From Patescibacteria group bacterium (lineage in GTDB: Bacteria > Patescibacteriota > Saccharimonadia > UBA4664), in the NCBI GenBank assembly GCA_028288925.1, contig JAQGHG010000003.1, positions 30,500 to 94,499 on the forward strand: a DNA stretch of 64,000 nucleotides, given 5' to 3'. Position 1 is the first letter of the stretch; the number at the start of each line of letters is the position of its first letter. Under the pieces are notes generated by a model that did not search any database, was not told the DNA's origin, and saw only the letters and a list, made by a program, of their open reading frames with translations. The position numbers and the translations under genes were made by a program. Below are positions 5,492 to 64,000 of the stretch, in pieces.

Positions 5492-6421
5492 CTATGCAAA
5501 CGTCCGTACCAAAACCTCGCTCAAAGCCTCCAATGTCCGCTCATTGTTAGCTACCAAGAGCATGTCGTAAGCGGTGGGGTCGAGCGGATCACGCTGCTCC
5601 AACTGGCGCTGCTCGGTTACCCAAAACCCACGGGCCGCGCCGCCGGCCCTCAGCACCAAGAGAGCCCCGGCGCAGTCCCACCAGCTACCCATGCCCAGCG
5701 TCAATCCCGCTGCCACCCCAATGGTTGCATCGGTCGAATACGCCCCGTCCGCCACCATTGCCTGGTGAAAACCGTTGGAGCCATATGATTGAATAACTAC
5801 CTGGTCAAACAGCGCCTCGTACAGCTTCAAGCAGCCCTCTGCGCACAGCACCTGCTTGGTGCCCGAATGGGCCTTAAACGGCCGGAACTTATCAATCAGT
5901 ACCGTAGTAGTCCGGGAGAGCTCACCCGGCCAGGTCCGGCATTCCACTGTCTGCTGTGGCGTATCGGCAAGATCGCTTCCATGAACCAATCGCCGGCAGC
6001 CGGCGTTGTCGGCCACCCATACTCGTCCCGTCGCTGGGTGCCCAATCGCCGCGCCTACCAGCTGCCGTGCGTCACGCGAGTACAGCGCCACCATGGTGGT
6101 CGAAGTAGCGGTGCCGGTCGCGAACGATCGGGTGCCGTCGATCGGGTCAATGATTATAAAATACGGCGCATCAACCTGTTCGCCCGTCCAGCCGTCCTCT
6201 TCGCCCAAGATTGGCACGTTCGGCAGCGCGGCTCGCAGCATTGTCACCATCACGGCCTCACATGCATGATCAGCCTCAGTCACCAGCGAGGCATCTGCCT
6301 GCTTCATCTCTGAAGCGCTCACTATCTGGGCGCCCCGCTGATAAGCTGCGACAACCCGCATCGCCTCCAGTACCGCCTTGGGCGCAATCTCACCAAAGGT
6401 AGCAAGCGGCGATTCCCGCAA
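5492..6421 (-). CDS. Inositol-monophosphatase family protein, paralog 2.
   Basis: IIDPIDGT motif and EEDGW upstream motif. Tandem with paralog 1. Confidence 0.8.
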   Translation of the reverse strand: MRESPLATFGEIAPKAVLEAMRVVAAYQRGAQIVSASEMKQADASLVTEADHACEAVMVTMLRAALPNVPILGEEDGWTGEQVDAPYFIIIDPIDGTRSFATGTATSTTMVALYSRDARQLVGAAIGHPATGRVWVADNAGCRRLVHGSDLADTPQQTVECRTWPGELSRTTTVLIDKFRPFKAHSGTKQVLCAEGCLKLYEALFDQVVIQSYGSNGFHQAMVADGAYSTDATIGVAAGLTLGMGSWWDCAGALLVLRAGGAARGFWVTEQRQLEQRDPLDPTAYDMLLVANNERTLEALSEVLVRTFA

Positions 6422-10978: not shown

Positions 10979-12805
10979 ATGTGCGGCATCATCGGATACA
11001 TCGGAAAAGATAAGGCGCTCCCCGTGCTCTTGGACGGCCTGCGCCGCATGGAATACCGTGGCTATGATTCGGCCGGCGTAGCGCTGTTGGATGAGGGCAA
11101 AACCACCGTAGTCAAGCGCCAAGGCAAAATCGTCAATCTCGCCGTCGCCCTCAAGGAGCACCCACCCGCCGGCCACCTCGGTATCGGCCACACCCGCTGG
11201 GCCACCCACGGTGTCCCCAACGAGCTCAACGCCCACCCGCATCAGGCCGGCCGTATTACCATCGTGCACAATGGCATCATCGAAAACTACGCCGAACTCA
11301 AGGCCGAACTCAAGGCCAAACACCATCGCACCTTCCTCAGCGACACCGACACCGAAGTGCTAGCCCACCTCATCGCCGTGGAGCGCGATACCACCAAATC
11401 CCTCGAAGCCGCCGTTTTGGCCGCCTTACTCCAAGTGGAAGGGACCTTTGGCGTCCTCGTACTCGACGACCAGGAGCCCGGCAAGCTCGTCGCCGCCCGC
11501 CGTGGCAGCCCATTACTACTCGGCATCTCCGCAGATGCTATCTACCTGGCCTCCGACGCCACCGCCGTCATCGGCCACACCGACCGCGTAGTGTACTTAG
11601 ACGACGACGAAATCGCCGTCTGCACTCCAGGCAAGTACGACATCATCGACTTCGAAGCCCAAGCCAGACAGCACGAAGAGCACAAGATCGAGCTCGAGCT
11701 GGGTGCCATCGAGAAGGCCGGCTACGACCACTTCCTCCTCAAAGAAATCATGGAACAGCCCCGCACCATCGCCGATATCCTGCGTGGCCGCCTGGACCTT
11801 GAGGCCGGGACCAGTCGCCTCGGGGGCTTAAGCGACCCTCAGATCTACCACGACATCACCCGCTTTCTTACCATCGGCTGCGGCACTGCCTACTACGCCG
11901 GTCTCCTGGGCCAATATCTGCTCGAGCGCCTCACCGGCTTGCCGGTCGACATCGAGTTCGCTTCCGAATTCCGCTACCGCGAGCCAATTGTCGACGGCCG
12001 CGCCCTTGGCCTCATCATCACCCAGTCCGGCGAGACCGCCGACACCCTGGCCTCCCTGCGCGAGCTCAAACGCCGCGACATCCGCACCTTCGGCCTCGTC
12101 AACGTCATCGGTTCCAGCGTGGCGCGCGAAGTCGACGGGGGAATGTACCTCCACGCCGGCCCAGAGATCTCGGTGGCCTCCACCAAGGCCTTCACCGCGC
12201 AAGTCATCGGCCACCTCCTAGTCGGTCTCCAGATCGGCCGCGGCCGCCAGCTTCCCATCACCGAAGGCCAAGCCGTCGTTAAAGCCCTCCAGGCCCTGCC
12301 CGCCCAGGTGCAGTCCATCCTCGACCAGCGCGTTCATATCCAAAAGCTCGCCAAAAAATTCGCTCGCCACAAAAACGTCATGTATCTCGGCCGCGACACC
12401 CTCTACCCTGTCGCCCTCGAAGCCGCCCTCAAGCTCAAAGAAATTTCCTACATCCACGCCGAAGCCTATGCCTCAGGCGAGATGAAGCACGGCCCCGTCG
12501 CCCTCATCGACCCAGATCTGCTCGTAATTTTCTTTAACCCCAAAAACAGCCTCTACGACAAAACCCGCTCCAATCTCGAAGAAGTCCGGGCTCGCGGCGG
12601 CCGCCTACTCCTGGTGGGCACCGAAGGCGACGAATCGCTCAAAGCCTTTTCCGAAGACATCATCTACATCCCCGACAGCTCCCCTTATACTCAGCCCATC
12701 CTAGCCAATATCCCCATGCAGCTTTTCGCCTACTACGTAGCGGTCGAGCGGGGGACCGATGTCGATCAACCGCGCAACCTCGCCAAGTCTGTCACGGTCG
12801 AATAA
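10979..12805 (+). CDS. glmS: Glutamine--fructose-6-phosphate aminotransferase.
   Basis: MCGIIGYIG (N-terminal Cys nucleophile), two SIS domains, length 608 aa. AAGGAGG SD upstream. Confidence 0.95.
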   Translation: MCGIIGYIGKDKALPVLLDGLRRMEYRGYDSAGVALLDEGKTTVVKRQGKIVNLAVALKEHPPAGHLGIGHTRWATHGVPNELNAHPHQAGRITIVHNGIIENYAELKAELKAKHHRTFLSDTDTEVLAHLIAVERDTTKSLEAAVLAALLQVEGTFGVLVLDDQEPGKLVAARRGSPLLLGISADAIYLASDATAVIGHTDRVVYLDDDEIAVCTPGKYDIIDFEAQARQHEEHKIELELGAIEKAGYDHFLLKEIMEQPRTIADILRGRLDLEAGTSRLGGLSDPQIYHDITRFLTIGCGTAYYAGLLGQYLLERLTGLPVDIEFASEFRYREPIVDGRALGLIITQSGETADTLASLRELKRRDIRTFGLVNVIGSSVAREVDGGMYLHAGPEISVASTKAFTAQVIGHLLVGLQIGRGRQLPITEGQAVVKALQALPAQVQSILDQRVHIQKLAKKFARHKNVMYLGRDTLYPVALEAALKLKEISYIHAEAYASGEMKHGPVALIDPDLLVIFFNPKNSLYDKTRSNLEEVRARGGRLLLVGTEGDESLKAFSEDIIYIPDSSPYTQPILANIPMQLFAYYVAVERGTDVDQPRNLAKSVTVE

Positions 12806-12935: not shown

Positions 12936-15236
12936 GTGAGGCAGAAGAAGATTCGAACGATCATGGGTGTGGGACTGATTTTAGTAGGGATCGCGGCCTC
13001 GGCGCCAGGGACATCCAAGGCGATCGCGGCCCCTAGCGTGCAAATAATCGCGGGGACCGGCGTCGACGGCTTTAGCGGCGATGGTGGCCCAGCCGCGTCA
13101 GCTCAATTGTTCGCTCCCGCGGCGGTATCCACCGACGCTGCGGGCAATGTATACGTCATGGACCGTGGCAACCGCCGCGTCCGCCAGATCGATACGCAGA
13201 ACAAAATGCACACAGCCGTTGGAGACGGCAGCTCTTGTGGAAACGTCACCGACCCCGCTCTACCCCTCACGGGCATGTGTCCGGTCGGAGGATTAGCACT
13301 CGCTCCCGATGGTAGCAGTTACTTTAGTCAAAACGGCGCCATAGTCCGTGTTGCTCCGGACGGTCTCATGTACCACTACGCCGGAAAATACACCGGCTTC
13401 TTTGGTCCGTATGACGACGGTCCCAAATATGGCGTGAGTTTCAGCCCTACGGCCGTTGCCTACGACGATACTACCGGGAACGTGCTGTTTGCTGAGCAGC
13501 GGGCAATCCGGGCGGTCACTCCGGCCGGCCAAATCGTGACTGTCGCCGGTAAGATCACTCCCGGCGACAGTGGCGCCTGTAATAGCCCGTCAGATGATGT
13601 CACTCCGGCACTTGGATCCTGCTTCTACCCCCGGGGCCTGGCCGCGAAGAACGGCAAAATTTACTTTACTGAGCAGAGTTCTTGGAACGGACCGCGAGCT
13701 CGGGTCATCGACGGTGGCACGGTACGCACAATAGCCGGCAATGGTAGCCGGATCGATCCAGCAGATGGCGCCGCGGCCACGGCCTCCGGCTTCTCCGATA
13801 TGGGCGGGATCGCCGTGGACAATACCGGCAACGTCTACCTGAGCGGCCTATCCCGGGGCCAGGTCTGGAAAGTTTCGGCCGCCGATCAGACCATCACCAA
13901 GGTCACCGAATTCGAAGGCGGCGCTGGATGGCTCGCGACCGACGCGGGTGGCAACCTCTACGTCAGCCTCCAATATAAGCACTCCATAGCCAAGATAAGC
14001 GGCTTACAGCCGCCCAAACCACTACCCATGATCGCTGATATAGCCCCCGACGCGCCATCTTCGCAGGATCCATTACTGACTCGTGGCGTCACCATCACCC
14101 CCTCAGACAACGGCGTCCCGTCCAGCCACTTCGAGTACGGCTGGGCCTCGAGTTCCACGGCCACTGAGCCTTCCGCGCCCCTGCAGCGCTCAGACACCAC
14201 CCAGGCACGTCTTCGCTATCACGACACCACGCCGGACCAAGATTGGTACCTCCTGGCCCGCGGCTTCAACGCCGCTGGCGAGGCCGGCCCTTGGTCCACG
14301 CCCCACCTCGTTCATACGCCCAAAGCCCCCAGTCTTATCATCCTAGGCGACTCCATCTCCTCCGGCCACCACAACGGCTACGGCGACAATGGCAAAACCA
14401 AATGCGACGATGAAAACTACGGTTATGCTTTTGAATTCTCCAACAAATGGCGGGCCGAGTTGCCTGTGGCTTGGCGGCAAAGCGGGAACTATCATAATTT
14501 CGCTCATAGTGGCTTCGCGACTCAAAAACGAGCAAATTTGAACATTAAAGGATCTGTTATTGACGGCGGAACAAACGCCTGCCAAGAAGGAGTTATAACT
14601 AAGCCCTTAGCGGACGCCAAAGACATATTAGGTGGTAGCGATTCCTGGAACCGTATCGTCATCTCCGCCGGCATCGACGATACGAACTGGGACAGCGCGG
14701 TAAGACAAGTCATTGGCGTGCAGGTTGCCAGCGATATCGCGAGTCAATTCATCACCTCGTTTCTTCACCTCCCTGGCGTGAACATCAGCCCTATGAAGGA
14801 AGATGCCTGCCGGGCGCTCATCAAAGGGGCTTGGAACGGCCGTACTGCTTCGGTCCAAAGCAGTATCACGAGTGGGGCAAGTCAAATCACCTCCGGCTTA
14901 CATTCAACCGACCCGACTGCCAAGATCACCTGGCTCGGATACTACAATATCGCTGGTACCGGTACGAACGAGCTTCGGTCGACCCCTTACTTCCCGGAAG
15001 GTTGTAGTAACCCGGTCAGCGAGTCGATGGTCGTAGTACACAATGCCATACGATCCGGCTTGCCGGCGGATGTGCACTTTGTTTCCGCTGACCCTGTCAT
15101 GCATCAGGACAACAGCAAGATTCAACCGCTATACCTCGGCCAGGCGATCGCTAATGGCAACGGTCCCAACCCGGCGGGCTGGCCCCACCCGAATCGCGAT
15201 GGTGCACAGGCAATCGCTACACTCCTCATACCATAG
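12936..15236 (+). CDS. Secreted multidomain protein: signal peptide, NHL-repeat beta-propeller, Fn3-like linker and a C-terminal SGNH/GDSL hydrolase domain.
   Basis: GTG at 12936 lies 7 nt after GGAAGGAG. MRQKKIRTIMGVGLILVGIAASAPGTSKA signal peptide. Repeated DxxGNVYVxDrgNxRVr NHL units. LIILGDSISSG (GDS(L) block I) and DGAHPN-like block V near the C-terminus. Confidence 0.75.
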   Translation: MRQKKIRTIMGVGLILVGIAASAPGTSKAIAAPSVQIIAGTGVDGFSGDGGPAASAQLFAPAAVSTDAAGNVYVMDRGNRRVRQIDTQNKMHTAVGDGSSCGNVTDPALPLTGMCPVGGLALAPDGSSYFSQNGAIVRVAPDGLMYHYAGKYTGFFGPYDDGPKYGVSFSPTAVAYDDTTGNVLFAEQRAIRAVTPAGQIVTVAGKITPGDSGACNSPSDDVTPALGSCFYPRGLAAKNGKIYFTEQSSWNGPRARVIDGGTVRTIAGNGSRIDPADGAAATASGFSDMGGIAVDNTGNVYLSGLSRGQVWKVSAADQTITKVTEFEGGAGWLATDAGGNLYVSLQYKHSIAKISGLQPPKPLPMIADIAPDAPSSQDPLLTRGVTITPSDNGVPSSHFEYGWASSSTATEPSAPLQRSDTTQARLRYHDTTPDQDWYLLARGFNAAGEAGPWSTPHLVHTPKAPSLIILGDSISSGHHNGYGDNGKTKCDDENYGYAFEFSNKWRAELPVAWRQSGNYHNFAHSGFATQKRANLNIKGSVIDGGTNACQEGVITKPLADAKDILGGSDSWNRIVISAGIDDTNWDSAVRQVIGVQVASDIASQFITSFLHLPGVNISPMKEDACRALIKGAWNGRTASVQSSITSGASQITSGLHSTDPTAKITWLGYYNIAGTGTNELRSTPYFPEGCSNPVSESMVVVHNAIRSGLPADVHFVSADPVMHQDNSKIQPLYLGQAIANGNGPNPAGWPHPNRDGAQAIATLLIP

Positions 15237-15290: not shown

Positions 15291-15854
15291 ATGGCAGACA
15301 AACCAATGACCCATCTCTGGAAAAAATGGCCGGTACTCATCCTGGCTGCCGTCATAGCCCTGGTGCTGGGGGTAACAACCTGGGCCAATCTGAGCCTAGA
15401 GAGCGCCCAATACACCTACGCATCCCAGACAGCCTACGTGTATCGGTATGAGCTCACGCAGACTCCCGGCAAATCGATATCAGGAAGAACTACTGTTTAC
15501 CGCTTCAGGATCTCTGAAGATGGTAAGCCGGTGAGCAACCACAAAGTAAAGGTTGGTGTCTCTCATGCATATGGCATCGGAGTGCAAGATCGTAATGGTG
15601 ATGTATATGAGCGGGAATCAGTGACTGACGCTAACGGTTTTGTGGAGGTGACACACGCACCTAAGTTCTGGTCATTATTGGCTGACAAAGGGTTTGGGGT
15701 GTATGCCGCGCCACTGTTAACTCCGGCTGAGGCGGAGATTAGAAGACAAAAACTAGTATCTGGTGACCTTAAAAACAGTGATATTAATTGGGCGTCCACC
15801 TTTAGCATCCCCGCCATCTACCCCCGCTGGCTCAGCTGGTTCATCTGGCGATAA
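15291..15854 (+). CDS. Hypothetical membrane-anchored protein.
   Basis: N-terminal TM helix (WPVLILAAVIALVLGV). No recognised domain. Confidence 0.5.
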   Translation: MADKPMTHLWKKWPVLILAAVIALVLGVTTWANLSLESAQYTYASQTAYVYRYELTQTPGKSISGRTTVYRFRISEDGKPVSNHKVKVGVSHAYGIGVQDRNGDVYERESVTDANGFVEVTHAPKFWSLLADKGFGVYAAPLLTPAEAEIRRQKLVSGDLKNSDINWASTFSIPAIYPRWLSWFIWR

Positions 15855-15963
15855 ATCAAACATGAGGGAGCCACCCACGCAGTACCATTTTATGTAGATA
15901 ATCTACGCAAAACGGCTGCCTCTATCCCCGCAAACCCCACATCTTATGCCATAATAGCCATAC

Positions 15964-17883
15964 ATGGCCAAACGCAAAGCCCCATCAGTTAAAACCCTGG
16001 ATCTTCGGATTAAGCCCACGAGCGCACCCGCGCCCAAGCCTCAGCCCGACCCTACCCCCGTACCCGAGGAAGACGCCCAAGATATCCTCGAGCTTGAGGA
16101 TTTTCAGGATGACCCACACAACCCGGATTCCGGCCAGCACGCTGCCGTGGCCACCTGGCATCGCGCACCGTTTTGGGCCCGGGCTCTCGGCAGTCTCGTC
16201 GTATTTGCCGTGCTAGCGGTTGCTAGCTTCGAGCTCGTCTATGCCGGCAAGGTCTTCCCTGGTGTCACGGCCAACGGCGCCGACCTCGGCGGCCACTCGC
16301 TCAAAGGCTCCCAAGCCTTGCTCGAAGACAAAGCCACTCAATTCAACCAACAAGTCATCACCATTACGGACGGCGACACCAATCTTCGCATCCCCGTGAT
16401 CAGCCTAGCGCCGCAGTATGGCGCCGCCCGCGCCGCCCAGCTCGCCTACCATTACGGCCGGGAGGGGAGCCTGACTAACCGCGCGCGCCAGCAACTTCGG
16501 GCGCTGTTGGGCCGTGCCACCAATTTCTCGGTGTACAGCTATAATGACGCCCGCCTCATTCCCTACGTGGTGGGCCTCGACGACGACCTCATTACGCCCG
16601 TCCAGAACGCCTCCCTCAACTTTAATGACAGCCACGCCCAAGTCACCCCAGCCCAAACCGGCACGCGTCTGGACCTCGGTCGCCTCACCCAGCTCGTCAA
16701 CGAACGTCTCGCGCAGACCTCGGTCGAGCCTATCCACGCGCCGGTGTACCAGCTCCAGCCCGACCTCGGCACCGAGCCCCTTCAGGCCGCCGTCCGTCAG
16801 ATCGACGGCTACGTCTCGGGCCCCATCCCCCTCACCTACAACGGGATTGAGCGGCAAATCGACCAAAAAACCATCATCTCTTGGATCCAAGTCGGCGCCA
16901 AGCTCAACAAACCATTCCTCCAAACCCTCAAGTTGGACGATCTCTACCCGCCGTCCGCCGCCGCCGATCTCGGCTTGAGCAACGCCGCGGTCCAGGCCTA
17001 TGTGGCCGACCTCGCCAGGGGTATCGACCAGACCGCCCAGAACGCCGGCCTCGCTATGCAGGACGGCCATTTGGCCGTAGTCCAACCCAGCCGCACCGGC
17101 GCCAAGCTCGATCAGCCGGCCGCGGTCACAGCCATTCTGGCCGCCCTCAAGCAGCCCAGCAACCAACGCACCACCACCCTCAAGCTCGCCACTACCGCCG
17201 CCGAAGTCAACGAAAACAACCTCGAAAGCCTCGGCATCAAAGAGCAAATATCCGAGGGCGAGACCTATTTCCCCGGCTCGCCCAGCACCCGTCTCACCAA
17301 CGTCCGCGCCGGCGCCAACCGGTTCAACGGCGTATTGCTCAAGCCCGGCGAAGTCTTCTCGTTTGGCAAGCTGCTCGGCGCCGTCGGCCCCGAGACCGGC
17401 TATGTGCCCGAGCTCGTCATATTGGGCGACCATGAGGAGAAACAGTACGGCGGCGGCCTCTGCCAAGTCAGCTCCACGGCCTTCCGCGCCGCCCTGGCCG
17501 CCGGCCTGCCCATCCTGGAGCGTGTCAACCACGCCTTCGCCATTAGTTACTACACCTGGCCCTACAGCGCGCCCGGCGTCGACGCCACCATCTATTACCC
17601 CGCCGTCGACTTCAAATTCAAAAACGACACCGGCAGCTATATCTTGATGCAGACCATCATGAAGGGCACCGATCTCAAGTTCGAATTCTTCGGCACCAAG
17701 ACCAAAACCGGCGTACTCCGTGGACCGGACTTCGTCACCGGCAACAGCGATCCCACCCAGCCCTCGCACACCGTCTTCTATCGTGACGTCCTCGATCTGA
17801 CCGGAGCCGTTACCAAGACCGACACGTTCAACACCTACTACAAGTCCAGCAAAGACTTTCCCATCACCAAGCAGTTCAATTAA
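15964..17883 (+). CDS. VanW-family protein, membrane-anchored.
   Basis: YGGGLCQVSSTAFRAALAAGLPI is the VanW hallmark. N-terminal TM segment. Confidence 0.85.
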   Translation: MAKRKAPSVKTLDLRIKPTSAPAPKPQPDPTPVPEEDAQDILELEDFQDDPHNPDSGQHAAVATWHRAPFWARALGSLVVFAVLAVASFELVYAGKVFPGVTANGADLGGHSLKGSQALLEDKATQFNQQVITITDGDTNLRIPVISLAPQYGAARAAQLAYHYGREGSLTNRARQQLRALLGRATNFSVYSYNDARLIPYVVGLDDDLITPVQNASLNFNDSHAQVTPAQTGTRLDLGRLTQLVNERLAQTSVEPIHAPVYQLQPDLGTEPLQAAVRQIDGYVSGPIPLTYNGIERQIDQKTIISWIQVGAKLNKPFLQTLKLDDLYPPSAAADLGLSNAAVQAYVADLARGIDQTAQNAGLAMQDGHLAVVQPSRTGAKLDQPAAVTAILAALKQPSNQRTTTLKLATTAAEVNENNLESLGIKEQISEGETYFPGSPSTRLTNVRAGANRFNGVLLKPGEVFSFGKLLGAVGPETGYVPELVILGDHEEKQYGGGLCQVSSTAFRAALAAGLPILERVNHAFAISYYTWPYSAPGVDATIYYPAVDFKFKNDTGSYILMQTIMKGTDLKFEFFGTKTKTGVLRGPDFVTGNSDPTQPSHTVFYRDVLDLTGAVTKTDTFNTYYKSSKDFPITKQFN

Positions 17884-19836: not shown

Positions 19837-20819
19837 ACTACCGCGCCCATCGGCCGGGAGCCGCTCTGCCGCTGCCAGGTCGCCGCCGAATCAAACTGCA
19901 GCAGCGCCCGCGCCACACGCGTACGGCCGGCCGCTTGATGCCGGGCCACGGCCTCGGCCAGCGATTCGTGCGACAGCTCCATGTCGTGCAAAAAGAAAGC
20001 GTCGTCGCCGTAAGTACGCAAGAACTGCGCCGAGAAACCACCCGGGCTCAAGGCCTGCACGCGGTGCGCCAGCAGCACTAGAGCCTCGTATTGATCACGC
20101 TGAAGCTTTGAGATACCCTGGAGCGGCCGCGCTGTGTCCAGCGTCCGCTGAAAGCTGCTAGCCAACGTCAAGAATTCCGCGTCCACCCCCAGCAACACAT
20201 CCAGCGCGTCATCCATAGCCTCCGTCTGGGTGGGGGAGACGGTGGCGCGCGCCAGCCGCCGCATATCAACCTCGTGCTTGGCCAAAAACGCTTCCATCGA
20301 CTGCCAGCTCGCCGCCACGCGGTCCTCCAATTCCGTCTTGGGTTTAAGGCCGAAATCTCCCGGCGCCACCTGGCCGGTGTAGTCCACCAATAAGCTCGAC
20401 GGGGGGAGCTCCGCTACCAATGCCCCCACAGCCGTCTCGCTCAGCTCAGAAGTCAGGTAAAGGCTGAAGCAGTTGGCCGGAATCATGCCTAGCTGCTTTG
20501 GCCGCACCAAAAAAGCCGTCGCCTCAGGATCATCATGCGGGGCCTCCGCGGCCAGATTCATGTGCTGCATTTGCGTAATGGTATAGGTATACTTCAAAAT
20601 CTCGACGGCGTTCGTGGAAAATGCCCGCCGGCGCTGCAATGTCCGGGAGAGCTTGAGCCACTGCTTTTGAGCCAAAGGCAGCATAGCCGCGGGTTGGTCG
20701 CATACAATGATAGCCTTCCCCAAATGCTGCCGCGCCTGCAGATGGCGCATTACATCCGCCATCATATTTGCCGCTGCGTTTCGGACGCGCCGCCGGTTCT
20801 CCAGATAATGTACAGCCAT
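19833..20819 (-). CDS. Uncharacterised 328-aa protein, co-operonic with radC and the bla-like gene.
   Basis: No recognisable motif. 4-nt overlap with the downstream gene, 38-nt gap to radC. Confidence 0.5.
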   Translation of the reverse strand: MAVHYLENRRRVRNAAANMMADVMRHLQARQHLGKAIIVCDQPAAMLPLAQKQWLKLSRTLQRRRAFSTNAVEILKYTYTITQMQHMNLAAEAPHDDPEATAFLVRPKQLGMIPANCFSLYLTSELSETAVGALVAELPPSSLLVDYTGQVAPGDFGLKPKTELEDRVAASWQSMEAFLAKHEVDMRRLARATVSPTQTEAMDDALDVLLGVDAEFLTLASSFQRTLDTARPLQGISKLQRDQYEALVLLAHRVQALSPGGFSAQFLRTYGDDAFFLHDMELSHESLAEAVARHQAAGRTRVARALLQFDSAATWQRQSGSRPMGAVV

Positions 20820-58822: not shown

Positions 58823-58899
58823 TGGTGGGCCCGGCAGGACTTGAACCTGCGACCAAGCGGTTATGAGCCGCCTGCTCTAACCAACTGAGCTACGGGCCC
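58823..58899 (-). tRNA. tRNA with anticodon CAT, most like tRNA-Ile2 (lysidine type, ileX-like).
   Basis: Reverse complement GGGCCCGTAGCTCAGTTGGTTAGAGCAGGCGGCTCATAACCGCTTGGTCGCAGGTTCAAGTCCTGCCGGGCCCACCA. Strong resemblance to E. coli ileX through the anticodon and T arms. Confidence 0.85.
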
Positions 58900-60211: not shown

Positions 60212-60289
60212 CCGCGGGGTGGAGCAGATGGATTAGCTCGCTGGGCTCATAACCCAGAGGTCGTAGGTTCAAGTCCTACCCCCGCTACC
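60212..60289 (+). tRNA. Initiator tRNA-fMet (CAT).
   Basis: CGCGGGGTGGAGCAG...CTGGGCTCATAACCCAG... closely parallels E. coli tRNA-fMet. Three G-C pairs in the anticodon stem, a C1-U72 mismatch, and encoded CCA. Confidence 0.9.
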
Positions 60290-60311
60290 AGAAATTATCC
60301 ACACACAAAAG

Positions 60312-60359
60312 GAGGCCCCTGCGGCCTCCTTTGCATAGGTGCCTCGTACCGTTATAATA
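60312..60359 (+). promoter_or_regulatory. Terminator hairpin (GGAGGCC-cctgc-GGCCTCC-TTT) immediately followed by promoter TTGCAT-N16-TATAAT for the next tRNA.
   Basis: Hairpin at 60312-60333. ttgcat at 60332-60337 and tataat at 60354-60359. Confidence 0.55.
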
Positions 60360-60375: not shown

Positions 60376-60450
60376 GGCTGCGTAGCTCAGTGGTAGAGCA
60401 GGAGACTCATAAGCTCTTGGTCGGTAGTTCGAATCTACCCGTAGCCACCA
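60376..60450 (+). tRNA. Elongator tRNA-Met (CAT).
   Basis: GGCTGCG...CGTAGCCACCA acceptor as in E. coli elongator tRNA-Met. Anticodon loop CTCATAA. An A31-G39 mismatch is noted in the anticodon stem. Confidence 0.85.
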
Positions 60451-61945
60451 TTTTGGATTTATCACCCGCCACATCGGCGGAAAGTTGGAAGTTAAGCCCT
60501 AAAGTGGCAGTTCTAAAACCATTCCCGAAGTCATAGGTAATACCGTCCGGGAAAACCATTTTTTGGAACCGCTGCTTGTCCTCGACCGTCGCCTCACGCC
60601 AAAAGCGGACCGGATCAGCCATAAAACCGATCGCCATATCGACAATCTGCCGCTTGTTGGCTTCGTCGTTTTTAAGCTCGCGTTTTTCTTCTTCAAGCTG
60701 CTCTCGCTGGCGTTTTAGGCGTTGGTGTTTGTCGCGCCCCATTTGGGCATCTAGCTTGTTATCGACAATCATATCCGTAACCGTAATGGCCGTAGCGTCG
60801 ATGCCGTCCAGCTCACGGTCAATCGCCTTGCGGCGCTCAAACGCTTCTCGGTATTCCTGGTTCCAGCGCCGTAGAACTACCTCACGGTAGAGCCTCAGTG
60901 AGCCTTCGGTGGGTGTAGCGGCCGCAAGTTGTGCTTCAAACTGCTCGTGCATAACATCGTTGGCGATGCTTGTTATCTTGCCGGTTACAGATTTGCGGCA
61001 CTTTGGGCAGTTATAGCGCATATAGTAGGCACCTGAACTGCCTCGTGGTGCCGAGCCGGTAATACTGCTGTCGCAGTCGCCGCACCGCAACGCCTTACCG
61101 CGTAGAGGCCAGTGCTCGTTACGCTTGGCATATGGCGTTATAGCTTTCTTGCGGCCGCTCAAGATGGCTTGTATCGCCTTGTGATCGCCAACACTAATTA
61201 ACGGCGGGTGAATGCCGTCTACGTCCCCATCGACCATCGAGGAGCGTACTATTCCGGCATAAATGGGGTTGCGCAACATATTGCAGATTGTCTGCTGGGT
61301 AAACGGCTTGCCGGTTCGACCGACCAGTCCTATGGACGCCGCCAGCTTTGCAGCATCTTTCTGAGTATATTTTCCGGTTCGGAACTCTAGCAGGAGCTTT
61401 TTAACCAGGCCCGCCTGCTCGTTTGGCTCCAACGTAGCACGCTTCTGAGGGTCTTTTACGGCCCGGTAGCCGGTGGGCGGGGAGAAGGGCCAGCAACCTT
61501 CCTCAACGCTGGCTGTCATACCAGCCGAACAGCGCAACGATCTAATATCATTATCAAACTCGGCGAATATTGCCAGAGTGCCTTCAATGAGCTTGCCGGT
61601 TGGCGTTTCATCAATCTGCTCCGTCGCGGAGCGGAGCTTGACCCCATAACCAGCAAGCAACTTCCTTACCGCAAAGTGATCCCCGGCATTGCGGGCGAAT
61701 CGGTCAAGCTTCCAAACAATGACCACATCAAGGTCACGACGATGCTTAATGGAATGCAGGATCATTTTCTGGAATTGTGAGCGTTGATCGGTCTTAGCCG
61801 ACTCACCTTCTTCGACGAACACCGCCTGCACCAAGAGCCCCTTGCCCTCTGCGTAGGCCTGGCAATCCTTGAGCTGGTTTTCAAGGCTATACCCGTCAAC
61901 CTGCTCTTTGCTGGAAACTCTCGTGTAAATAACTGCGGTTCTCAT
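60407..61945 (-). CDS. Large serine recombinase (resolvase catalytic domain, recombinase domain and zinc ribbon).
   Basis: MRTAVIYTRVSSKEQ (catalytic Ser), CGDCDS...CPKC zinc ribbon, and a C-terminal coiled coil. The 3' end overlaps the tRNA-Met gene. Confidence 0.85.
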   Translation of the reverse strand: MRTAVIYTRVSSKEQVDGYSLENQLKDCQAYAEGKGLLVQAVFVEEGESAKTDQRSQFQKMILHSIKHRRDLDVVIVWKLDRFARNAGDHFAVRKLLAGYGVKLRSATEQIDETPTGKLIEGTLAIFAEFDNDIRSLRCSAGMTASVEEGCWPFSPPTGYRAVKDPQKRATLEPNEQAGLVKKLLLEFRTGKYTQKDAAKLAASIGLVGRTGKPFTQQTICNMLRNPIYAGIVRSSMVDGDVDGIHPPLISVGDHKAIQAILSGRKKAITPYAKRNEHWPLRGKALRCGDCDSSITGSAPRGSSGAYYMRYNCPKCRKSVTGKITSIANDVMHEQFEAQLAAATPTEGSLRLYREVVLRRWNQEYREAFERRKAIDRELDGIDATAITVTDMIVDNKLDAQMGRDKHQRLKRQREQLEEEKRELKNDEANKRQIVDMAIGFMADPVRFWREATVEDKQRFQKMVFPDGITYDFGNGFRTATLGLNFQLSADVAGDKSKMVATGRFELPTKSL

Positions 61946-61986
61946 AGAAGCCTCGGACTCAATTTTCCCACGTGTATCTGTAGCCA

Positions 61987-62211
61987 TCAAGAAACCTTCG
62001 TGGATTTTAGAACTGCGTCTGCCCGCCGCAAGTTAACGCCTGCTACGAAGTCTAGCTCTATGATCTGGCGTTCAACTTCCTCATCAGTACGACCCTCGGC
62101 TTCTTTGCCAAGCAGCTTCCGAGCTTCTTTAATGGTAATGATTAACCCACCGTCTCTAACCGAACTCGCCATAACAGTTATTCCGGGCCAGACCCGCTGA
62201 CTGCTCAACAA
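61987..62211 (-). CDS. Small hypothetical protein (74 aa) immediately upstream of the serine recombinase; possible accessory or regulatory factor.
   Basis: ORF with a 4-nt overlap to the recombinase ORF. No recognised motif. Confidence 0.35.
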   Translation of the reverse strand: MLSSQRVWPGITVMASSVRDGGLIITIKEARKLLGKEAEGRTDEEVERQIIELDFVAGVNLRRADAVLKSTKVS

Positions 62212-62312
62212 AAAAATACGCTGAAACAGCCAGTAAGTACCTGGCGGCCGGGTTTACCCAGCTCTGTTTCAGCGTTAGATCGCTTTGGTTAATACTTTAG
62301 ATGTACGAGCCA

Positions 62313-62723
62313 TTATAAACCGAGACGGGGCTGATGCCCAACCTCATACCTAATGTGCTCCACGGCAGCACCCAATTGCTCTAATGCGGGCGTTAGCACT
62401 GTGAGCCTATGGCATTTCTCGGGTGCCGCCTCGGAACACAGCAGCACGATCCGCTCGGCCGCTGCCAGCTCGTATACGGCCGCGAGCGTCTCCTCGTATT
62501 CGACATTCTCGCCCAGCCCACCCAAGTTTGCCCCGCGCCAGTCGTAATTGATGTCGTGGTCAGCAAGGAACTGTGCCAGCCGATCACGGTTGAAGTGCGG
62601 GTGCCATCGTGAGTACGGCTTGGTGCGTACGTCTACAAGCCGGTCGATGCCGTAAGATTGCAGCCGCTCCAACACTTCCTCGGCCGAGCGTACGCTGTGG
62701 CCGATAGTCCAAATCGTCCTCAC
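62313..62723 (-). CDS. DUF488-family protein.
   Basis: N-terminal MRTIWTIGHSVRSAEE... pattern typical of DUF488. Confidence 0.65.
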   Translation of the reverse strand: MRTIWTIGHSVRSAEEVLERLQSYGIDRLVDVRTKPYSRWHPHFNRDRLAQFLADHDINYDWRGANLGGLGENVEYEETLAAVYELAAAERIVLLCSEAAPEKCHRLTVLTPALEQLGAAVEHIRYEVGHQPRLGL

Positions 62724-62982
62724 AACGCTAGTTCCTGTAATGATGATTTTAGGAAGTTGGCGCCGTTTTTAACTGTATGGGTACAACCGATACACTGACG
62801 AAGTGACACCGAACGCAATCTTGGCAAACTACCACTTTTACGCTGCACAGTGCAGGGTTTTTGCAACCATATCTGCCTTAAAAAGACCCGAACACCCTGC
62901 ACGATTCCCCGTGTCTTCTGGTTGCATACAGCAATACTTTTGCAGCTTTTTACCCTGGGCAGCCGCCCGAACACCGCCGCCA

Positions 62983-63897
62983 TTAGAAGTTCACTCCTGC
63001 AAACGTTCTGTAATACCGTGGTAAATCGTCTGTATGCTTCACCCCGTCCCAATACACCTGCAACGTTTCGATATTACGGTGGCGCGTGTATCTTGCCACC
63101 TCTAGTAGATCGCCCTTGTACTCCTTGATGAGCTGGGTGGTGAAGTAGTGGCGTAGGCCGTGGGTGGTTTTCTCTATCCCTAGCTCGGCTAAACACAGCT
63201 GCACGAGATTGCGGACTGAGCGCGTCGTTAGCCGGCAATTTAAGCTGTTATGGCTGCGGCTAGTAAATAGGGGGCCATCAGCCACTCGGTTGGCTTTGAG
63301 GTGCTCTCTAAGCGAGCGTACCGTTTCCGGGTGCAGATAGACGGGTTCGGTATCGTCCCGGCCCTTACCGCGCACGTGAGCTATGCCACGCGCAAGCTCC
63401 AAATCTTTTACGTCTAGTCGGGTAACTTCGATCTGGCGCAAGCCCTGCAGCGCGAGCAGGCTGATGATGGCCTTCAAGCGAGCATTCTCGACCGTATCTG
63501 GCAGCTGGCGTAGCATATCGGCTAGCTCTTGCACCTCGACCTTCGTTAATCCGTCGCGCTTGTGTCGCTTGCCCTGGGCGAACCCTTTGACGTTCTGGGT
63601 GATGTCGGCCGGCAGTACGCCTTGGCGGTTCAGCTCCTTGAGCCAGATACGAGCAACGGCAAGATGCTTATTCTTGGTGCTCGCAGCGAGGTCGGTGCGG
63701 TTGGCTAGCCACCGCTTGTAGTCAAGAAAACTATTCCGGTTCAGGCCGCCACCTTCGATGAAGTGCAGGAATGAACCTATACGAGCCTGGTAGTCGGCAC
63801 GGGTGGCTTCACTCACGTCCAGACGCTCGAAGATGGCTTCTGTCGCCCAGCTGGACTGGGCCGCGAGGTGCATATTGGGGGACTGCATTAATTGCAT
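62983..63897 (-). CDS. Tyrosine-type site-specific recombinase / integrase.
   Basis: ATG at 63895-63897 with GGGAG 7 nt upstream. C-terminal catalytic residues HGLRHYF...RYTRH...LQVYWD (R-H-R-Y). Confidence 0.85.
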   Translation of the reverse strand: MQLMQSPNMHLAAQSSWATEAIFERLDVSEATRADYQARIGSFLHFIEGGGLNRNSFLDYKRWLANRTDLAASTKNKHLAVARIWLKELNRQGVLPADITQNVKGFAQGKRHKRDGLTKVEVQELADMLRQLPDTVENARLKAIISLLALQGLRQIEVTRLDVKDLELARGIAHVRGKGRDDTEPVYLHPETVRSLREHLKANRVADGPLFTSRSHNSLNCRLTTRSVRNLVQLCLAELGIEKTTHGLRHYFTTQLIKEYKGDLLEVARYTRHRNIETLQVYWDGVKHTDDLPRYYRTFAGVNF

Positions 63898-63915
63898 TTT
63901 GTGGCTCCCTAAAGC

Positions 63916-63968
63916 CAAATAACTGTACTTATATTTTATCAGACGAGCTACCTTTGTACAGTTATTTG
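63916..63968. repeat. Perfect 13-bp inverted repeat CAAATAACTGTAC...GTACAGTTATTTG with a 27-nt AT-rich spacer, 20-70 nt upstream of the integrase start.
   Basis: Read directly: 63916-63928 and 63956-63968 are exact reverse complements. Confidence 0.8.
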
Positions 63969-64000
63969 AGGCCGGAGTATACTTACCCCGGAGGCGTTAT

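Follow-up and report, generated by a model that had tools for sequence, protein, structure and literature searches.

Serine integrases are the main tools for the one-way insertion of large DNA, and their directionality is normally controlled through a separate factor. In classical serine integrase systems, attP is not known to lie inside the int ORF. The SSV1-type (fusellovirus) integrases of archaea carry attP within their own gene, which becomes partitioned upon insertion into a tRNA gene. In mycobacteriophages of the BPs/Brujita type, attP is located in a coding region, so that the gene acquires a new 3' end on integration and its product new properties, with a stop codon supplied at attL. 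Integration-dependent immunity of these mycobacteriophages is mentioned in PMC8092301. Large serine recombinases at tRNA genes have been called rare or unreported (PMC3218068; PMC7192596); a bioinformatic report placed Mycobacterium AICE serine recombinases in tRNA-Leu (PMC3218068), and TIGER yielded 14 S-Int/t(m)RNA islands (PMC7192596). The phiRSM filamentous phages of Ralstonia use a small serine recombinase to integrate at tRNA-Ser; the core measures 13 nt and is assigned to the 3' end in the table of that paper and to the 5' end in its text (PMC4471427).

We analyzed a 64,000-nucleotide stretch of a Patescibacteria genome (hereafter, the window). Comparison with homologous loci makes it very probable that a large serine recombinase (LSR) encoded near the right end of the window is the integrase of an element that has entered a tRNA-Met gene at its 3' end, and that the attP of this enzyme is located in the 3' end of its own ORF.

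The LSR resembles Bxb1, PhiC31, and the Listeria A118/LI and SPbeta SprA integrases in its catalytic domain, recombinase domain, zinc ribbon, and long coiled coil. It further shares with phage-type serine integrases a zinc-ribbon motif placed 5 bp further out in attP than in attB; its predicted common core would likewise be short, and the small adjacent ORF could correspond to a directionality factor. In contrast to the phage-type systems, attP here appears to lie in the integrase ORF, so that integration would alter the C-terminus, and the elements of this clade span 3–12 kb and carry no phage genes. Identity amounts to only 15–18% for the solved structures and to less than 35%, over partial coverage, for any phage or plasmid record. 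The likeness to SSV1, namely attP in the integrase gene and a gene split by tRNA insertion, holds in principle only: the SSV1-type enzymes are tyrosine recombinases of archaeal viruses, whereas the present enzyme is a bacterial serine recombinase, and the SSV1 gene is cut into two large parts, while only ~25–40 terminal codons are exchanged here. The BPs/Brujita systems similarly replace the 3' end of the gene that holds attP, but the gene encodes a repressor, the integrase is a tyrosine recombinase, and the exchange concerns an ssrA-like degradation tag. phiRSM is comparable as a serine recombinase that integrates at a tRNA gene; however, its enzyme is of the resolvase/invertase type without recombinase, zinc-ribbon, and coiled-coil domains, and its attP lies between orf14 and orf15, not in the recombinase gene (PMC4471427). 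The AICE and TIGER reports likewise concern large serine recombinases at tRNA genes; they mention no attP inside the recombinase gene, no exchange of tails, no mimicry of the T-loop, and no clade that spans phyla (PMC3218068; PMC7192596).

Results

The following features were assigned in the window:

58823-58899, minus strand: second host tRNA-CAT, unoccupied here, whose counterpart in the relative L081 holds a related element (ARAGORN and synteny)
60330-60358, plus strand: promoter-like site of the tRNA-Met gene, TTTGCA-17-TATAAT (consensus scan, 10/12 positions)
60376-60450, plus strand: tRNA-Met(CAT), the putative integration target (ARAGORN; Rfam RF00005, 66.2 bits)
60407-61945, minus strand: LSR, 512 aa, the putative integrase of the element (Pfam domains, PHROG, homologues)
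60443-60450, unstranded: predicted common core, AGCCACCA on the plus and TGGTGGCT on the minus strand (from the attL/attR pairs of relatives)
61987-62211, minus strand: conserved small ORF, 74 aa, directly upstream of the LSR gene (jackhmmer homologues)
62312-62340, minus strand: weak promoter-like site, TGGGCA-17-TATAAT, upstream of the small ORF and LSR gene (consensus scan only)
62313-62723, minus strand: DUF488 protein, element cargo (Pfam PF04343, E 1e-18)
62983-63918, minus strand: Xer-like tyrosine recombinase, 311 aa, inside the LSR-bounded element (Pfam Phage_integrase, E 1e-18)
63916-63968, unstranded: perfect 13-nt inverted repeat, CAAATAACTGTAC / GTACAGTTATTTG, with a 27-nt spacer (repeat search)

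The LSR ORF extends over 60407-61990 (minus strand) with an alternative TTG start at 61990, while the database protein of 100% identity (P0001, 512 aa), which is present on one contig only, a 97,610-bp contig of a Patescibacteria MAG, starts at the ATG at 61945. The protein matched Pfam Resolvase (PF00239, E 4e-32), Recombinase (PF07508, E 1.2e-9), and, below the gathering score, Zn_ribbon_recom (PF13408, E 3.6e-4), as well as the PHROG 95 integrase family (E 4e-80), and 844 homologues were found. In the LSR alignment, Y7, R9, S11, and Q15 of the N-terminal resolvase-type catalytic domain were invariant, and the cysteines C288, C291, C313, and C316 were invariant or nearly so. An AF2 model of the homologue P0085 showed long helices at 346–427 and matched the full-length structures of Bxb1, PhiC31, and SPbeta-type integrases (E 1e-15 to 2e-19). 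The Pfam matches, the cysteines, and this model together assign to the enzyme the recombinase domain and the zinc ribbon with inserted coiled coil that characterize LSRs.

The LSR frame overlaps the tRNA gene by 44 nt and terminates within the anticodon loop (...MVATGRFELPTKSL*). Its final 14 codons (ATG GTG GCT ACG GGT AGA TTC GAA CTA CCG ACC AAG AGC TTA) and the following TGA correspond in reverse complement to tRNA nucleotides 76 to 33, with the stop antisense to U33-C34-A35; the terminal 11 codons and the stop (60442-60407) are host tRNA sequence in antisense. A previous sequence-only reading of this DNA had described a minus-strand cluster of LSR, 74-aa ORF, DUF488, and tyrosine integrase, and an LSR frame that enters the antisense tRNA (...GRFELPTKSL). 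All four genes were located where it had placed them, and the ORF and tRNA coordinates and the reverse-complement match verified the overlap. It missed that the overlap would be the signature of an LSR clade with attP inside the recombinase gene, and that the enzyme tied to the tRNA appears to be the LSR, not the tyrosine integrase.

The tRNA-Met gene, intact in the integrated state, represents the host-derived (B') side of attL, and it is identical at 75/75 positions to the tRNA held by a 48%-identical LSR in another locus (L082). The consensus scan recovered the TATAAT promoter attributed to this tRNA earlier, and transcription from this promoter-like site converges on the 3' end of the LSR gene. 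The GC content drops at the tRNA-Met gene from ~0.59–0.64 to 0.51–0.56. Three tRNA-CAT genes are present in the neighborhood; judging from their resemblance to E. coli sequences, the one at 60213-60290 is presumably the initiator and the one at 58823-58899 tRNA-Ile2.

The closest relative with a long contig (L081; LSR 55% identical) has the same gene order as the window, tyrosine recombinase–DUF488–small ORF–LSR, and the same host order, def / tRNA / DUF2207 / DivIC / tRNA / tRNA. Its LSR-bounded element of 6.65 kb, with a stub of the LSR tail at 266-343, occupies a different tRNA-CAT of the equivalent host neighborhood, and each of the two genomes has the other's tRNA site empty. The GC drop and the unoccupied homologous tRNA of this syntenic host support the earlier proposal of an integrative element at the tRNA 3' end, for which a comparison with related genomes had been suggested. 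The window, which ends at 64000, contained no second att site, in agreement with the view that the right boundary lies beyond it. In this view, the window covers attL and the leftmost 3.6 kb of a small integrative element whose right end falls beyond 64000; if intact and similar to its relatives, the whole element probably measures ~6–7 kb.

A tRNA-antisense tail was present in 102 of the 120 best LSR homologues, in the window frame in 95 and in other frames in 7. A minority, at least 9 of the same 120, have a native tail of the form [LMV]-V-x6-W-N-helix; these tails align gap-free as LV-x6-WN, and AF2 predicts the helix with low confidence (pLDDT 50–63). We fetched 80 loci from species-representative genomes of many phyla. 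In most of them, a tRNA on the other strand is positioned exactly where the LSR gene ends, giving ~53 LSR/tRNA overlap junctions in many phyla with 11 tRNA isotypes (Met, Glu, Ala, Lys, Ser, Gln, Leu, Asn, Ile, Arg, and Phe), and LSRs 69–78% identical to one another use different tRNAs. Since the overlap recurs in ~53 independent junctions, it is not a chance arrangement. A native-tail HMM detected orphan tail stubs on the LSR strand, 3.3–11.6 kb upstream, in at least 17 integrated loci, with almost no matches on the opposite strand; in 16–17 relatives, the stub adjoins an ~8-nt repeat of the tRNA 3' end.

Two closed circular contigs (5.07 and 6.51 kb) encode native-tail LSRs and no tyrosine recombinase. 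L164 closes by a 141-nt terminal overlap to a 5,071-bp circle, of which L163 is an independent assembly in circular permutation, and L165 has a 30-nt terminal overlap; all three carry the native-tail LSR with TGGTGGAC...TGGAA(C/A)C at position 24. The intact ORF across attP with its native tail on these circles, and the orphan stubs at attR beside the repeat of the tRNA 3' end, place attP inside the LSR ORF. Therefore, integration would swap the native tail for one coded by antisense tRNA. Native-tail LSR genes also occur away from tRNAs on large chromosomal contigs (L071, L046, and L050), which we tentatively explain by tandem arrays or nesting.

To delimit the core, 16 attL/attR pairs of relatives were aligned, the T-loop motif serving as the anchor in attL and TGGAA, which lies five positions further out, as the anchor in attR. 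Identity was confined to positions 1–8 from the tRNA 3' end, each identical in 12–16 of the 16 pairs, and fell to background elsewhere; 15 of the pairs have a common core of ~8 nt. The core in the window, predicted to comprise CCA, the discriminator, and the top 4 nt of the acceptor stem, is extrapolated to 60443-60450 from these pairs, the attR of the window lying outside it, and the crossover dinucleotide should fall within these 8 nt. The earlier suggestion that the tRNA junction is an att core was supported by this comparison with relatives. In contrast, a search for the 28-nt repeat of the tRNA 3' segment proposed at that time would mislead, as only ~8 nt are repeated in relatives.

TGGAACC occupies position 24 of the element arm and TCGAACC position 19 of the tRNA arm, without exception among the resolved pairs and the circular attP forms; the motif of the attP arm is thus exactly 5 bp further out than that of the tRNA T-loop. 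A zinc-ribbon motif shifted by 5 bp, closer to the center in attB than in attP, is the rule for LSRs (Rutherford 2013, PMC3783163), and the present sites conform to it. This suggests recognition of the T-loop motif by the zinc-ribbon domain. The other half-sites yielded no symmetric counterpart of the T-loop-like motif.

Homologues of the small ORF were found by local jackhmmer in the equivalent position in at least 38 of 73 loci, circular forms included, with the alignment motif I[ST]IxEARKLLG...[ST]DEE[VI]; the small ORF had no matches in Pfam, NCBIfam, or PHROG.

Discussion

We propose the following mechanism. On the free circle, the LSR ORF would read ...S-x-[L/M/V]-V, six residues, W-N, and an amphipathic helix of ~20 aa. 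The DNA of the attP region would mimic the tRNA 3' end with its ~8-nt copy of CCA, discriminator, and acceptor top (TGGTGGCT in the window), and a second time with TGGAACC, offset outward by 5 bp relative to TCGAACC in the T-loop of the real tRNA, the geometry by which LSRs distinguish attP from attB via the zinc-ribbon domain. Recombination in the 8-nt core would insert the element just inside the tRNA 3' end and leave the tRNA intact, after which the LSR ORF would run antisense into the tRNA to a stop in the anticodon loop, gaining TGRFELPTKSL* in the window. The stub that codes for the native tail would remain orphaned at attR, the far end of the element, expected here beyond 64000. The small ORF upstream of the LSR gene is a candidate accessory or directionality factor, and DUF488 and the Xer-like tyrosine recombinase would be passengers of the LSR-bounded element. 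Within this scheme, sequence comparison shows the architecture, the circular forms, the orphan stubs, the 5-bp offset, and the change of tRNA targets, and we infer the exchanged nucleotides, the reading of the T-loop motif by the zinc-ribbon domain, the activity of either protein form, and the attR position of the window.

The tail swap might in addition act as a built-in directionality or regulatory switch and, combined with T-loop reading and the acceptor-end copy, make the clade retargetable to any tRNA, a reading that we consider possible but rather unlikely. If so, the free circle would encode the complete integrase, W-N helix included, which could carry out attP x attB recombination, while the integrated copy would have the helix replaced by ~11 tRNA-encoded residues, with its transcription converging on an active tRNA gene, and its protein would be altered in activity, for example excision-competent together with the small upstream ORF, or silenced.

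Three features of the clade would be important if they are confirmed. Rewriting of the C-terminus at integration offers a self-contained and testable discrimination between the free and integrated states. The targets are tRNA genes, which are conserved in every genome, including those of uncultivated and hard-to-engineer Patescibacteria, and retargeting appears to need universal T-loop recognition and a short element-borne copy of the acceptor end; isotype switching covers at least 11 tRNA isotypes and occurs in some cases between enzymes 70–78% identical. For annotation, hundreds of database "recombinase family proteins" have tRNA-derived tails, and such elements will escape island finders that rely on long tRNA repeats.

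An ancestral immobile locus, in which the ORF enters the tRNA by a chance missing stop or an annotation artefact, would accord with the lack of a second att site in the window and the presence of the exact LSR protein on one contig only. However, the overlap recurs in dozens of unrelated genomes with 11 tRNA isotypes, the sites are empty in the syntenic relative, free circular forms exist, and the GC content drops at the junction; this explanation is effectively refuted. The classical form of a tRNA island, with the tyrosine recombinase as the tRNA-Met integrase and the serine recombinase as an accessory resolvase or invertase merely abutting the tRNA, also seems very improbable. Tyrosine integrases are the usual enzymes at tRNAs (t(m)RNA use by 44.5% of Y-Int elements vs 4.9% of S-Ints; PMC7192596), and the tyrosine recombinase lies 2.5 kb from the tRNA; yet the LSR–tRNA junction occurs in ~53 cases, most without any tyrosine recombinase, the element ends are set by the split ORF of the LSR itself, and the repeat, at ~8 nt, falls short of the long cores that tyrosine integrases typically use. 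Moreover, the tyrosine recombinase is Xer-like, lacks an arm-binding domain, is not adjacent to the tRNA, and has its close relatives on circles without a link to tRNA.

The best NCBIfam matches of the tyrosine recombinase scored far below the cut-offs for XerA (108.6 vs 220 bits), XerC (86 vs 335), and XerD (73 vs 330), placing it outside these equivalogs with an Xer-like architecture, and it probably serves in multimer resolution or as a second recombination route. Its homologues recur within the LSR-bounded elements of L081, L002, and L006, and relatives of 55–65% identity are encoded on at least 12 circular contigs of 7.3–10.3 kb without an LSR, one of which also codes a DnaG-like primase and a DnaB-like helicase. 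Because of this distribution, a composite origin of the element is likely, as the sequence-only reading had considered; the nested element that it offered as an alternative was not seen, in that none with boundaries of its own was found. A specific version, to which we give somewhat less than even credence and which refines the LSR-integrase explanation, is that an LSR module (small ORF, LSR, and intragenic attP) captured a portion of a small circular replicon bearing an Xer-like tyrosine recombinase, or became fused to it, the two enzymes catalyzing separate reactions, tRNA integration on the one hand and multimer resolution or a second integration route on the other. The LSR-less circles, the lack of a tyrosine recombinase on the LSR circles L164 and L165, and the restriction of the pairing to a few Saccharibacteria-type elements (the window, L081, L002, L006, and L224) argue for it. 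In contrast, no internal att-like boundaries were identified around the tyrosine-recombinase module, and the module order is kept between the window and L081 although their LSRs are only 55% identical, which points to a stable partnership rather than a recent capture. DUF488 is linked to a tyrosine recombinase in L224 and L232 as well. The 13-nt inverted repeat sits at the 5' end of the tyrosine recombinase gene and may be an operator or a recombination site.

The tRNA junction in the window

The large serine recombinase (LSR) of the window shares its 3' end with a tRNA gene on the opposite strand. The sequence-only reading had described this locus as an element at tRNA-Met in which the LSR frame runs into the tRNA, with a 74-aa ORF, DUF488, a tyrosine integrase and a promoter for the tRNA. 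The gene calls were as follows.

60376-60450, +, tRNA with anticodon CAT (ARAGORN and Rfam)
60213-60290, +, further tRNA-CAT near the 60376-60450 tRNA
58823-58899, -, further tRNA-CAT near the 60376-60450 tRNA
60407-61990, -, LSR ORF with Resolvase, Recombinase and zinc-ribbon domains

A database protein identical to the window LSR (P0001; source "MAG Patescibacteria group bacterium", on a contig of 97,610 bp) has 512 aa and starts at the ATG at 61945. Direct reading of the sequence revealed that the LSR takes its last 14 codons (M V A T G R F E L P T K S L) and its TGA stop from the antisense strand of the tRNA, over the stretch between the CCA end and U33-C34-A35. The 74-aa ORF, DUF488 and the tyrosine recombinase lie upstream of the LSR on the same (-) strand, a promoter-like TATAAT-type site is located 5' of the tRNA-CAT, def, DUF2207 and DivIC occupy the host side of the junction, and the GC content drops at the tRNA from about 0.6 to about 0.53. 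Taken together, these data show that the earlier description was accurate, since all the components it named are present.

The three tRNA-CAT genes of the window, which we take to be probably of the Ile2, initiator and elongator types, are grouped around DivIC. This trio is also kept in the host of the related locus L081, and two of its members are LSR targets in different genomes. Elsewhere in the window (19874-19968, -), ARAGORN called a "tRNA-???" of 95 nt whose anticodon has four bases (caag), perhaps an unusual tRNA or a tRNA-Leu that was modelled wrongly.

Antisense tRNA tails among LSR homologues

A C-terminal tail of the form [L/M/V]-V-x3-G-[F/I/L]-E-P-x-T was found in 95 of the 120 closest LSR homologues (35-55% identity). 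This tail results when the CCA (xTG GTx), acceptor stem and T arm (GGn TTC GAA CCn) are translated in antisense; in a further seven of the 120, a tRNA is read in another frame. A scan of species-representative genomes, a set that does not contain the window contig, yielded 80 LSR loci in Saccharibacteria, other Patescibacteria, Acidobacteriota, Gammaproteobacteria, Myxococcota, Verrucomicrobiota, Planctomycetota and others. ARAGORN placed an opposite-strand tRNA right at the 3' end of the LSR gene in most of them, with a typical overlap of 38-44 nt and 11 tRNA isotypes in use; with the window and extra loci included, the LSR/tRNA junctions total about 53. Judging from these comparisons, the overlap of ORF and tRNA is a property of the LSR family. 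Only three near-full-length relatives appeared in a scan of viral contigs, all integrated at tRNAs, and no close relatives were found in deposited phages and plasmids.

Closely related LSRs occupy different tRNAs: pairs with 77-78% identity are at tRNA-Lys and tRNA-Glu, pairs with about 70% identity at tRNA-Ala and tRNA-Lys, and a pair with 69% identity at tRNA-Arg and tRNA-Glu. Such target switching fits recognition of generic tRNA features together with a core that changes along with the target.

Two further observations concern the tRNA side of these loci. A second, distant LSR (24% identity to that of the window) in locus L008 (17286-18883) ends at an opposite-strand tRNA-Gln, and therefore tRNA targeting may reach beyond the studied clade. 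At five loci (L002, L004, L006, L034 and L078), the last LSR codons before the core, approximately 30 nt at the LSR/tRNA junction, form a hairpin between runs of A and T. Read on the tRNA strand, it would be a terminator-like structure directly after the CCA, and thus the element may provide the terminator of the tRNA out of coding sequence. The window counterpart is only a weak CCGCC...GGCGG hairpin at about 60467-60481.

An attachment site within the recombinase gene

A minority of LSR homologues have no tRNA at the 3' end. In a gapless alignment, their sequence after S-x-[LMV]-V continues with six residues, W-N and an amphipathic segment, which we term the native tail. A profile of this tail detected orphan copies in the tRNA-type loci. 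They are on the LSR strand, 3.3-11.6 kb upstream of the stop codon of the LSR, and the opposite strand gave hardly any matches. In the DNA sequence, every orphan stub follows host flank and a short repeated copy of the tRNA 3' end. Joining the LSR ORF to the stub restores a complete native-tail protein, which in L081 reads MV-GMTWSV-WNQIKEELLGWYQVL.... The native tail is also found on free circles: the ends of L164 overlap by 141 nt, as those of MEGAHIT contigs of circular molecules should, and its circle measures 5,071 bp; L163, from an independent assembly, is its circular permutation. A third native-tail contig, L165, has a terminal overlap of 30 nt.

The orphan stubs, the restored proteins and the native tail on circles indicate that attP, the site in the free circle, lies within the LSR ORF, the tRNA-tailed genes being attL junctions and the stubs attR. 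The alternative that native-tail genes form a separate subfamily with another target was rejected on the basis of the orphan stubs and circular contigs. Native-tail genes also occur in large chromosomal contigs (L071, L046 and L050). In the AF2 model the native tail is a helix of low confidence, so that no docking site for it could be inferred from the model.

In locus L065, stub- or att-like repeats with a tRNA 3' fragment occur at 648-759, 2059-2170, 5835-5892, 11270-11378 and 14503-14578, upstream of one tRNA-Ala, and a native-tail LSR lies in their midst. The array looks like a tandem accretion of elements, and such arrays may account for the native-tail genes in large chromosomal contigs. 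In L071, a 1.36-Mb contig, a P4-type tyrosine integrase with an arm-binding domain (15429-16649, -) is located 4 kb from the native-tail LSR, and the LSR element may sit inside another island.

Geometry of the attachment sites

For comparison of the junctions, the antisense strand was numbered starting at the tRNA 3' end; the anchor was the T-loop motif TCGAACC (position 19) for attL and TGGAA (position 24) for attR. The two junctions are identical at positions 1-8 only, where 12-16 of the 16 pairs agree per position, with background agreement elsewhere, indicating that the common core comprises the CCA together with the discriminator and four nucleotides of the acceptor stem. A T-loop-like TGGAACC is present in the element arm, shifted outwards by exactly 5 bp relative to the real T loop, as it is in the circular attP forms. 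This offset exactly matches the rule of Rutherford et al. (PMC3783163), by which the zinc-ribbon motif of LSRs is 5 bp nearer the crossover in attB than in attP. We infer that the zinc ribbon reads the T-loop-like motif in this clade. No symmetric or palindromic partner of this motif was seen in the other two half-sites.

The use of tRNAs by serine recombinases has been called rare or unreported in published work. Known cases are phiRSM, with a small serine recombinase targeting tRNA-Ser, eight Mycobacterium AICEs with serine recombinases in tRNA-Leu, and 14 of 297 S-Int islands at t(m)RNA. No description of an intragenic attP or of a tail swap in serine integrases was found in the literature searched. 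The principle resembles that of SSV1-type integrases and of integration-dependent immunity, both of which involve tyrosine recombinases.

Extent of the window element

Neither a repeat of the tRNA 3' end nor an orphan stub was found in 60451-64000, so attR of the window element lies outside the window, which bears out the earlier placement of the right boundary. An exact 29-mer taken from the end of the window had no match in the metagenome collection. The closest relative with a long contig, L081 (55% identity), has the same order of tyrosine recombinase, DUF488, small ORF, LSR and tRNA-CAT, and further upstream a 176-aa ORF, an HTH protein, a UvrD-like helicase and the stub at 266-343, giving an element of 6.65 kb. 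By analogy, the window element should end about 1-4 kb past position 64000. The predicted attR would read GTTCCA-N15-AGCCACCA on the plus strand, about 1-5 kb past 64000, and then pass into host DNA; on the minus strand, it would read TGGTGGCT-N15-TGGAAC in frame with x6-W-N, a helix of ~20 aa and a stop. The host neighbourhoods of the window and L081 are syntenic, and the two elements occupy different tRNA-CAT genes, the site of each being empty in the other. A second relative, L082 (LSR 48% identity), occupies a tRNA identical to that of the window.

Accessory genes and the tyrosine recombinase

The small ORF directly 5' of the LSR gene recurs in at least 38 of 73 loci, circles included, and is a candidate directionality factor. 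The cargo genes of small elements mostly gave no matches to Pfam and PHROG, and genes for replication, conjugation or virions were not recognised in any of the LSR elements. Recognised cargo consists of restriction-modification systems (L002 and L006), an OLD-family nuclease (L040) and a SocA/Panacea domain (L163/L164).

The tyrosine recombinase of the window is a simple two-domain, Xer-like protein that scores far below the XerA, XerC and XerD cut-offs. Its homologues lie within the LSR-bounded elements of L081, L002 and L006; none occurs on the LSR circles or in the majority of LSR elements. Relatives with 55-65% identity are abundant on small contigs, of which at least 12 are circular, measure 7.3-10.3 kb and lack an LSR (metagenomic contigs L169, L175, L176, L179, L183, L189, L196, L198, L200, L205, L208 and L237; terminal overlaps between 55 and 127 nt). 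Further genes on L175 code for a DnaG-like primase, a DnaB-like helicase and an ORF6N protein. The circles look like members of a widespread small-replicon family. Given the relatives on LSR-less circles and the absence from most LSR elements, the pairing of the two recombinases looks composite, joining a module for LSR integration to one from small circular replicons. The tyrosine recombinase may resolve multimers or offer a second route of integration. At the start of its gene lies a perfect 13-nt inverted repeat (63916-63928 / 63956-63968, 27-nt spacer), and a second inverted repeat of 12 nt with 92% complementarity (62850-62902) lies between DUF488 and the tyrosine recombinase.
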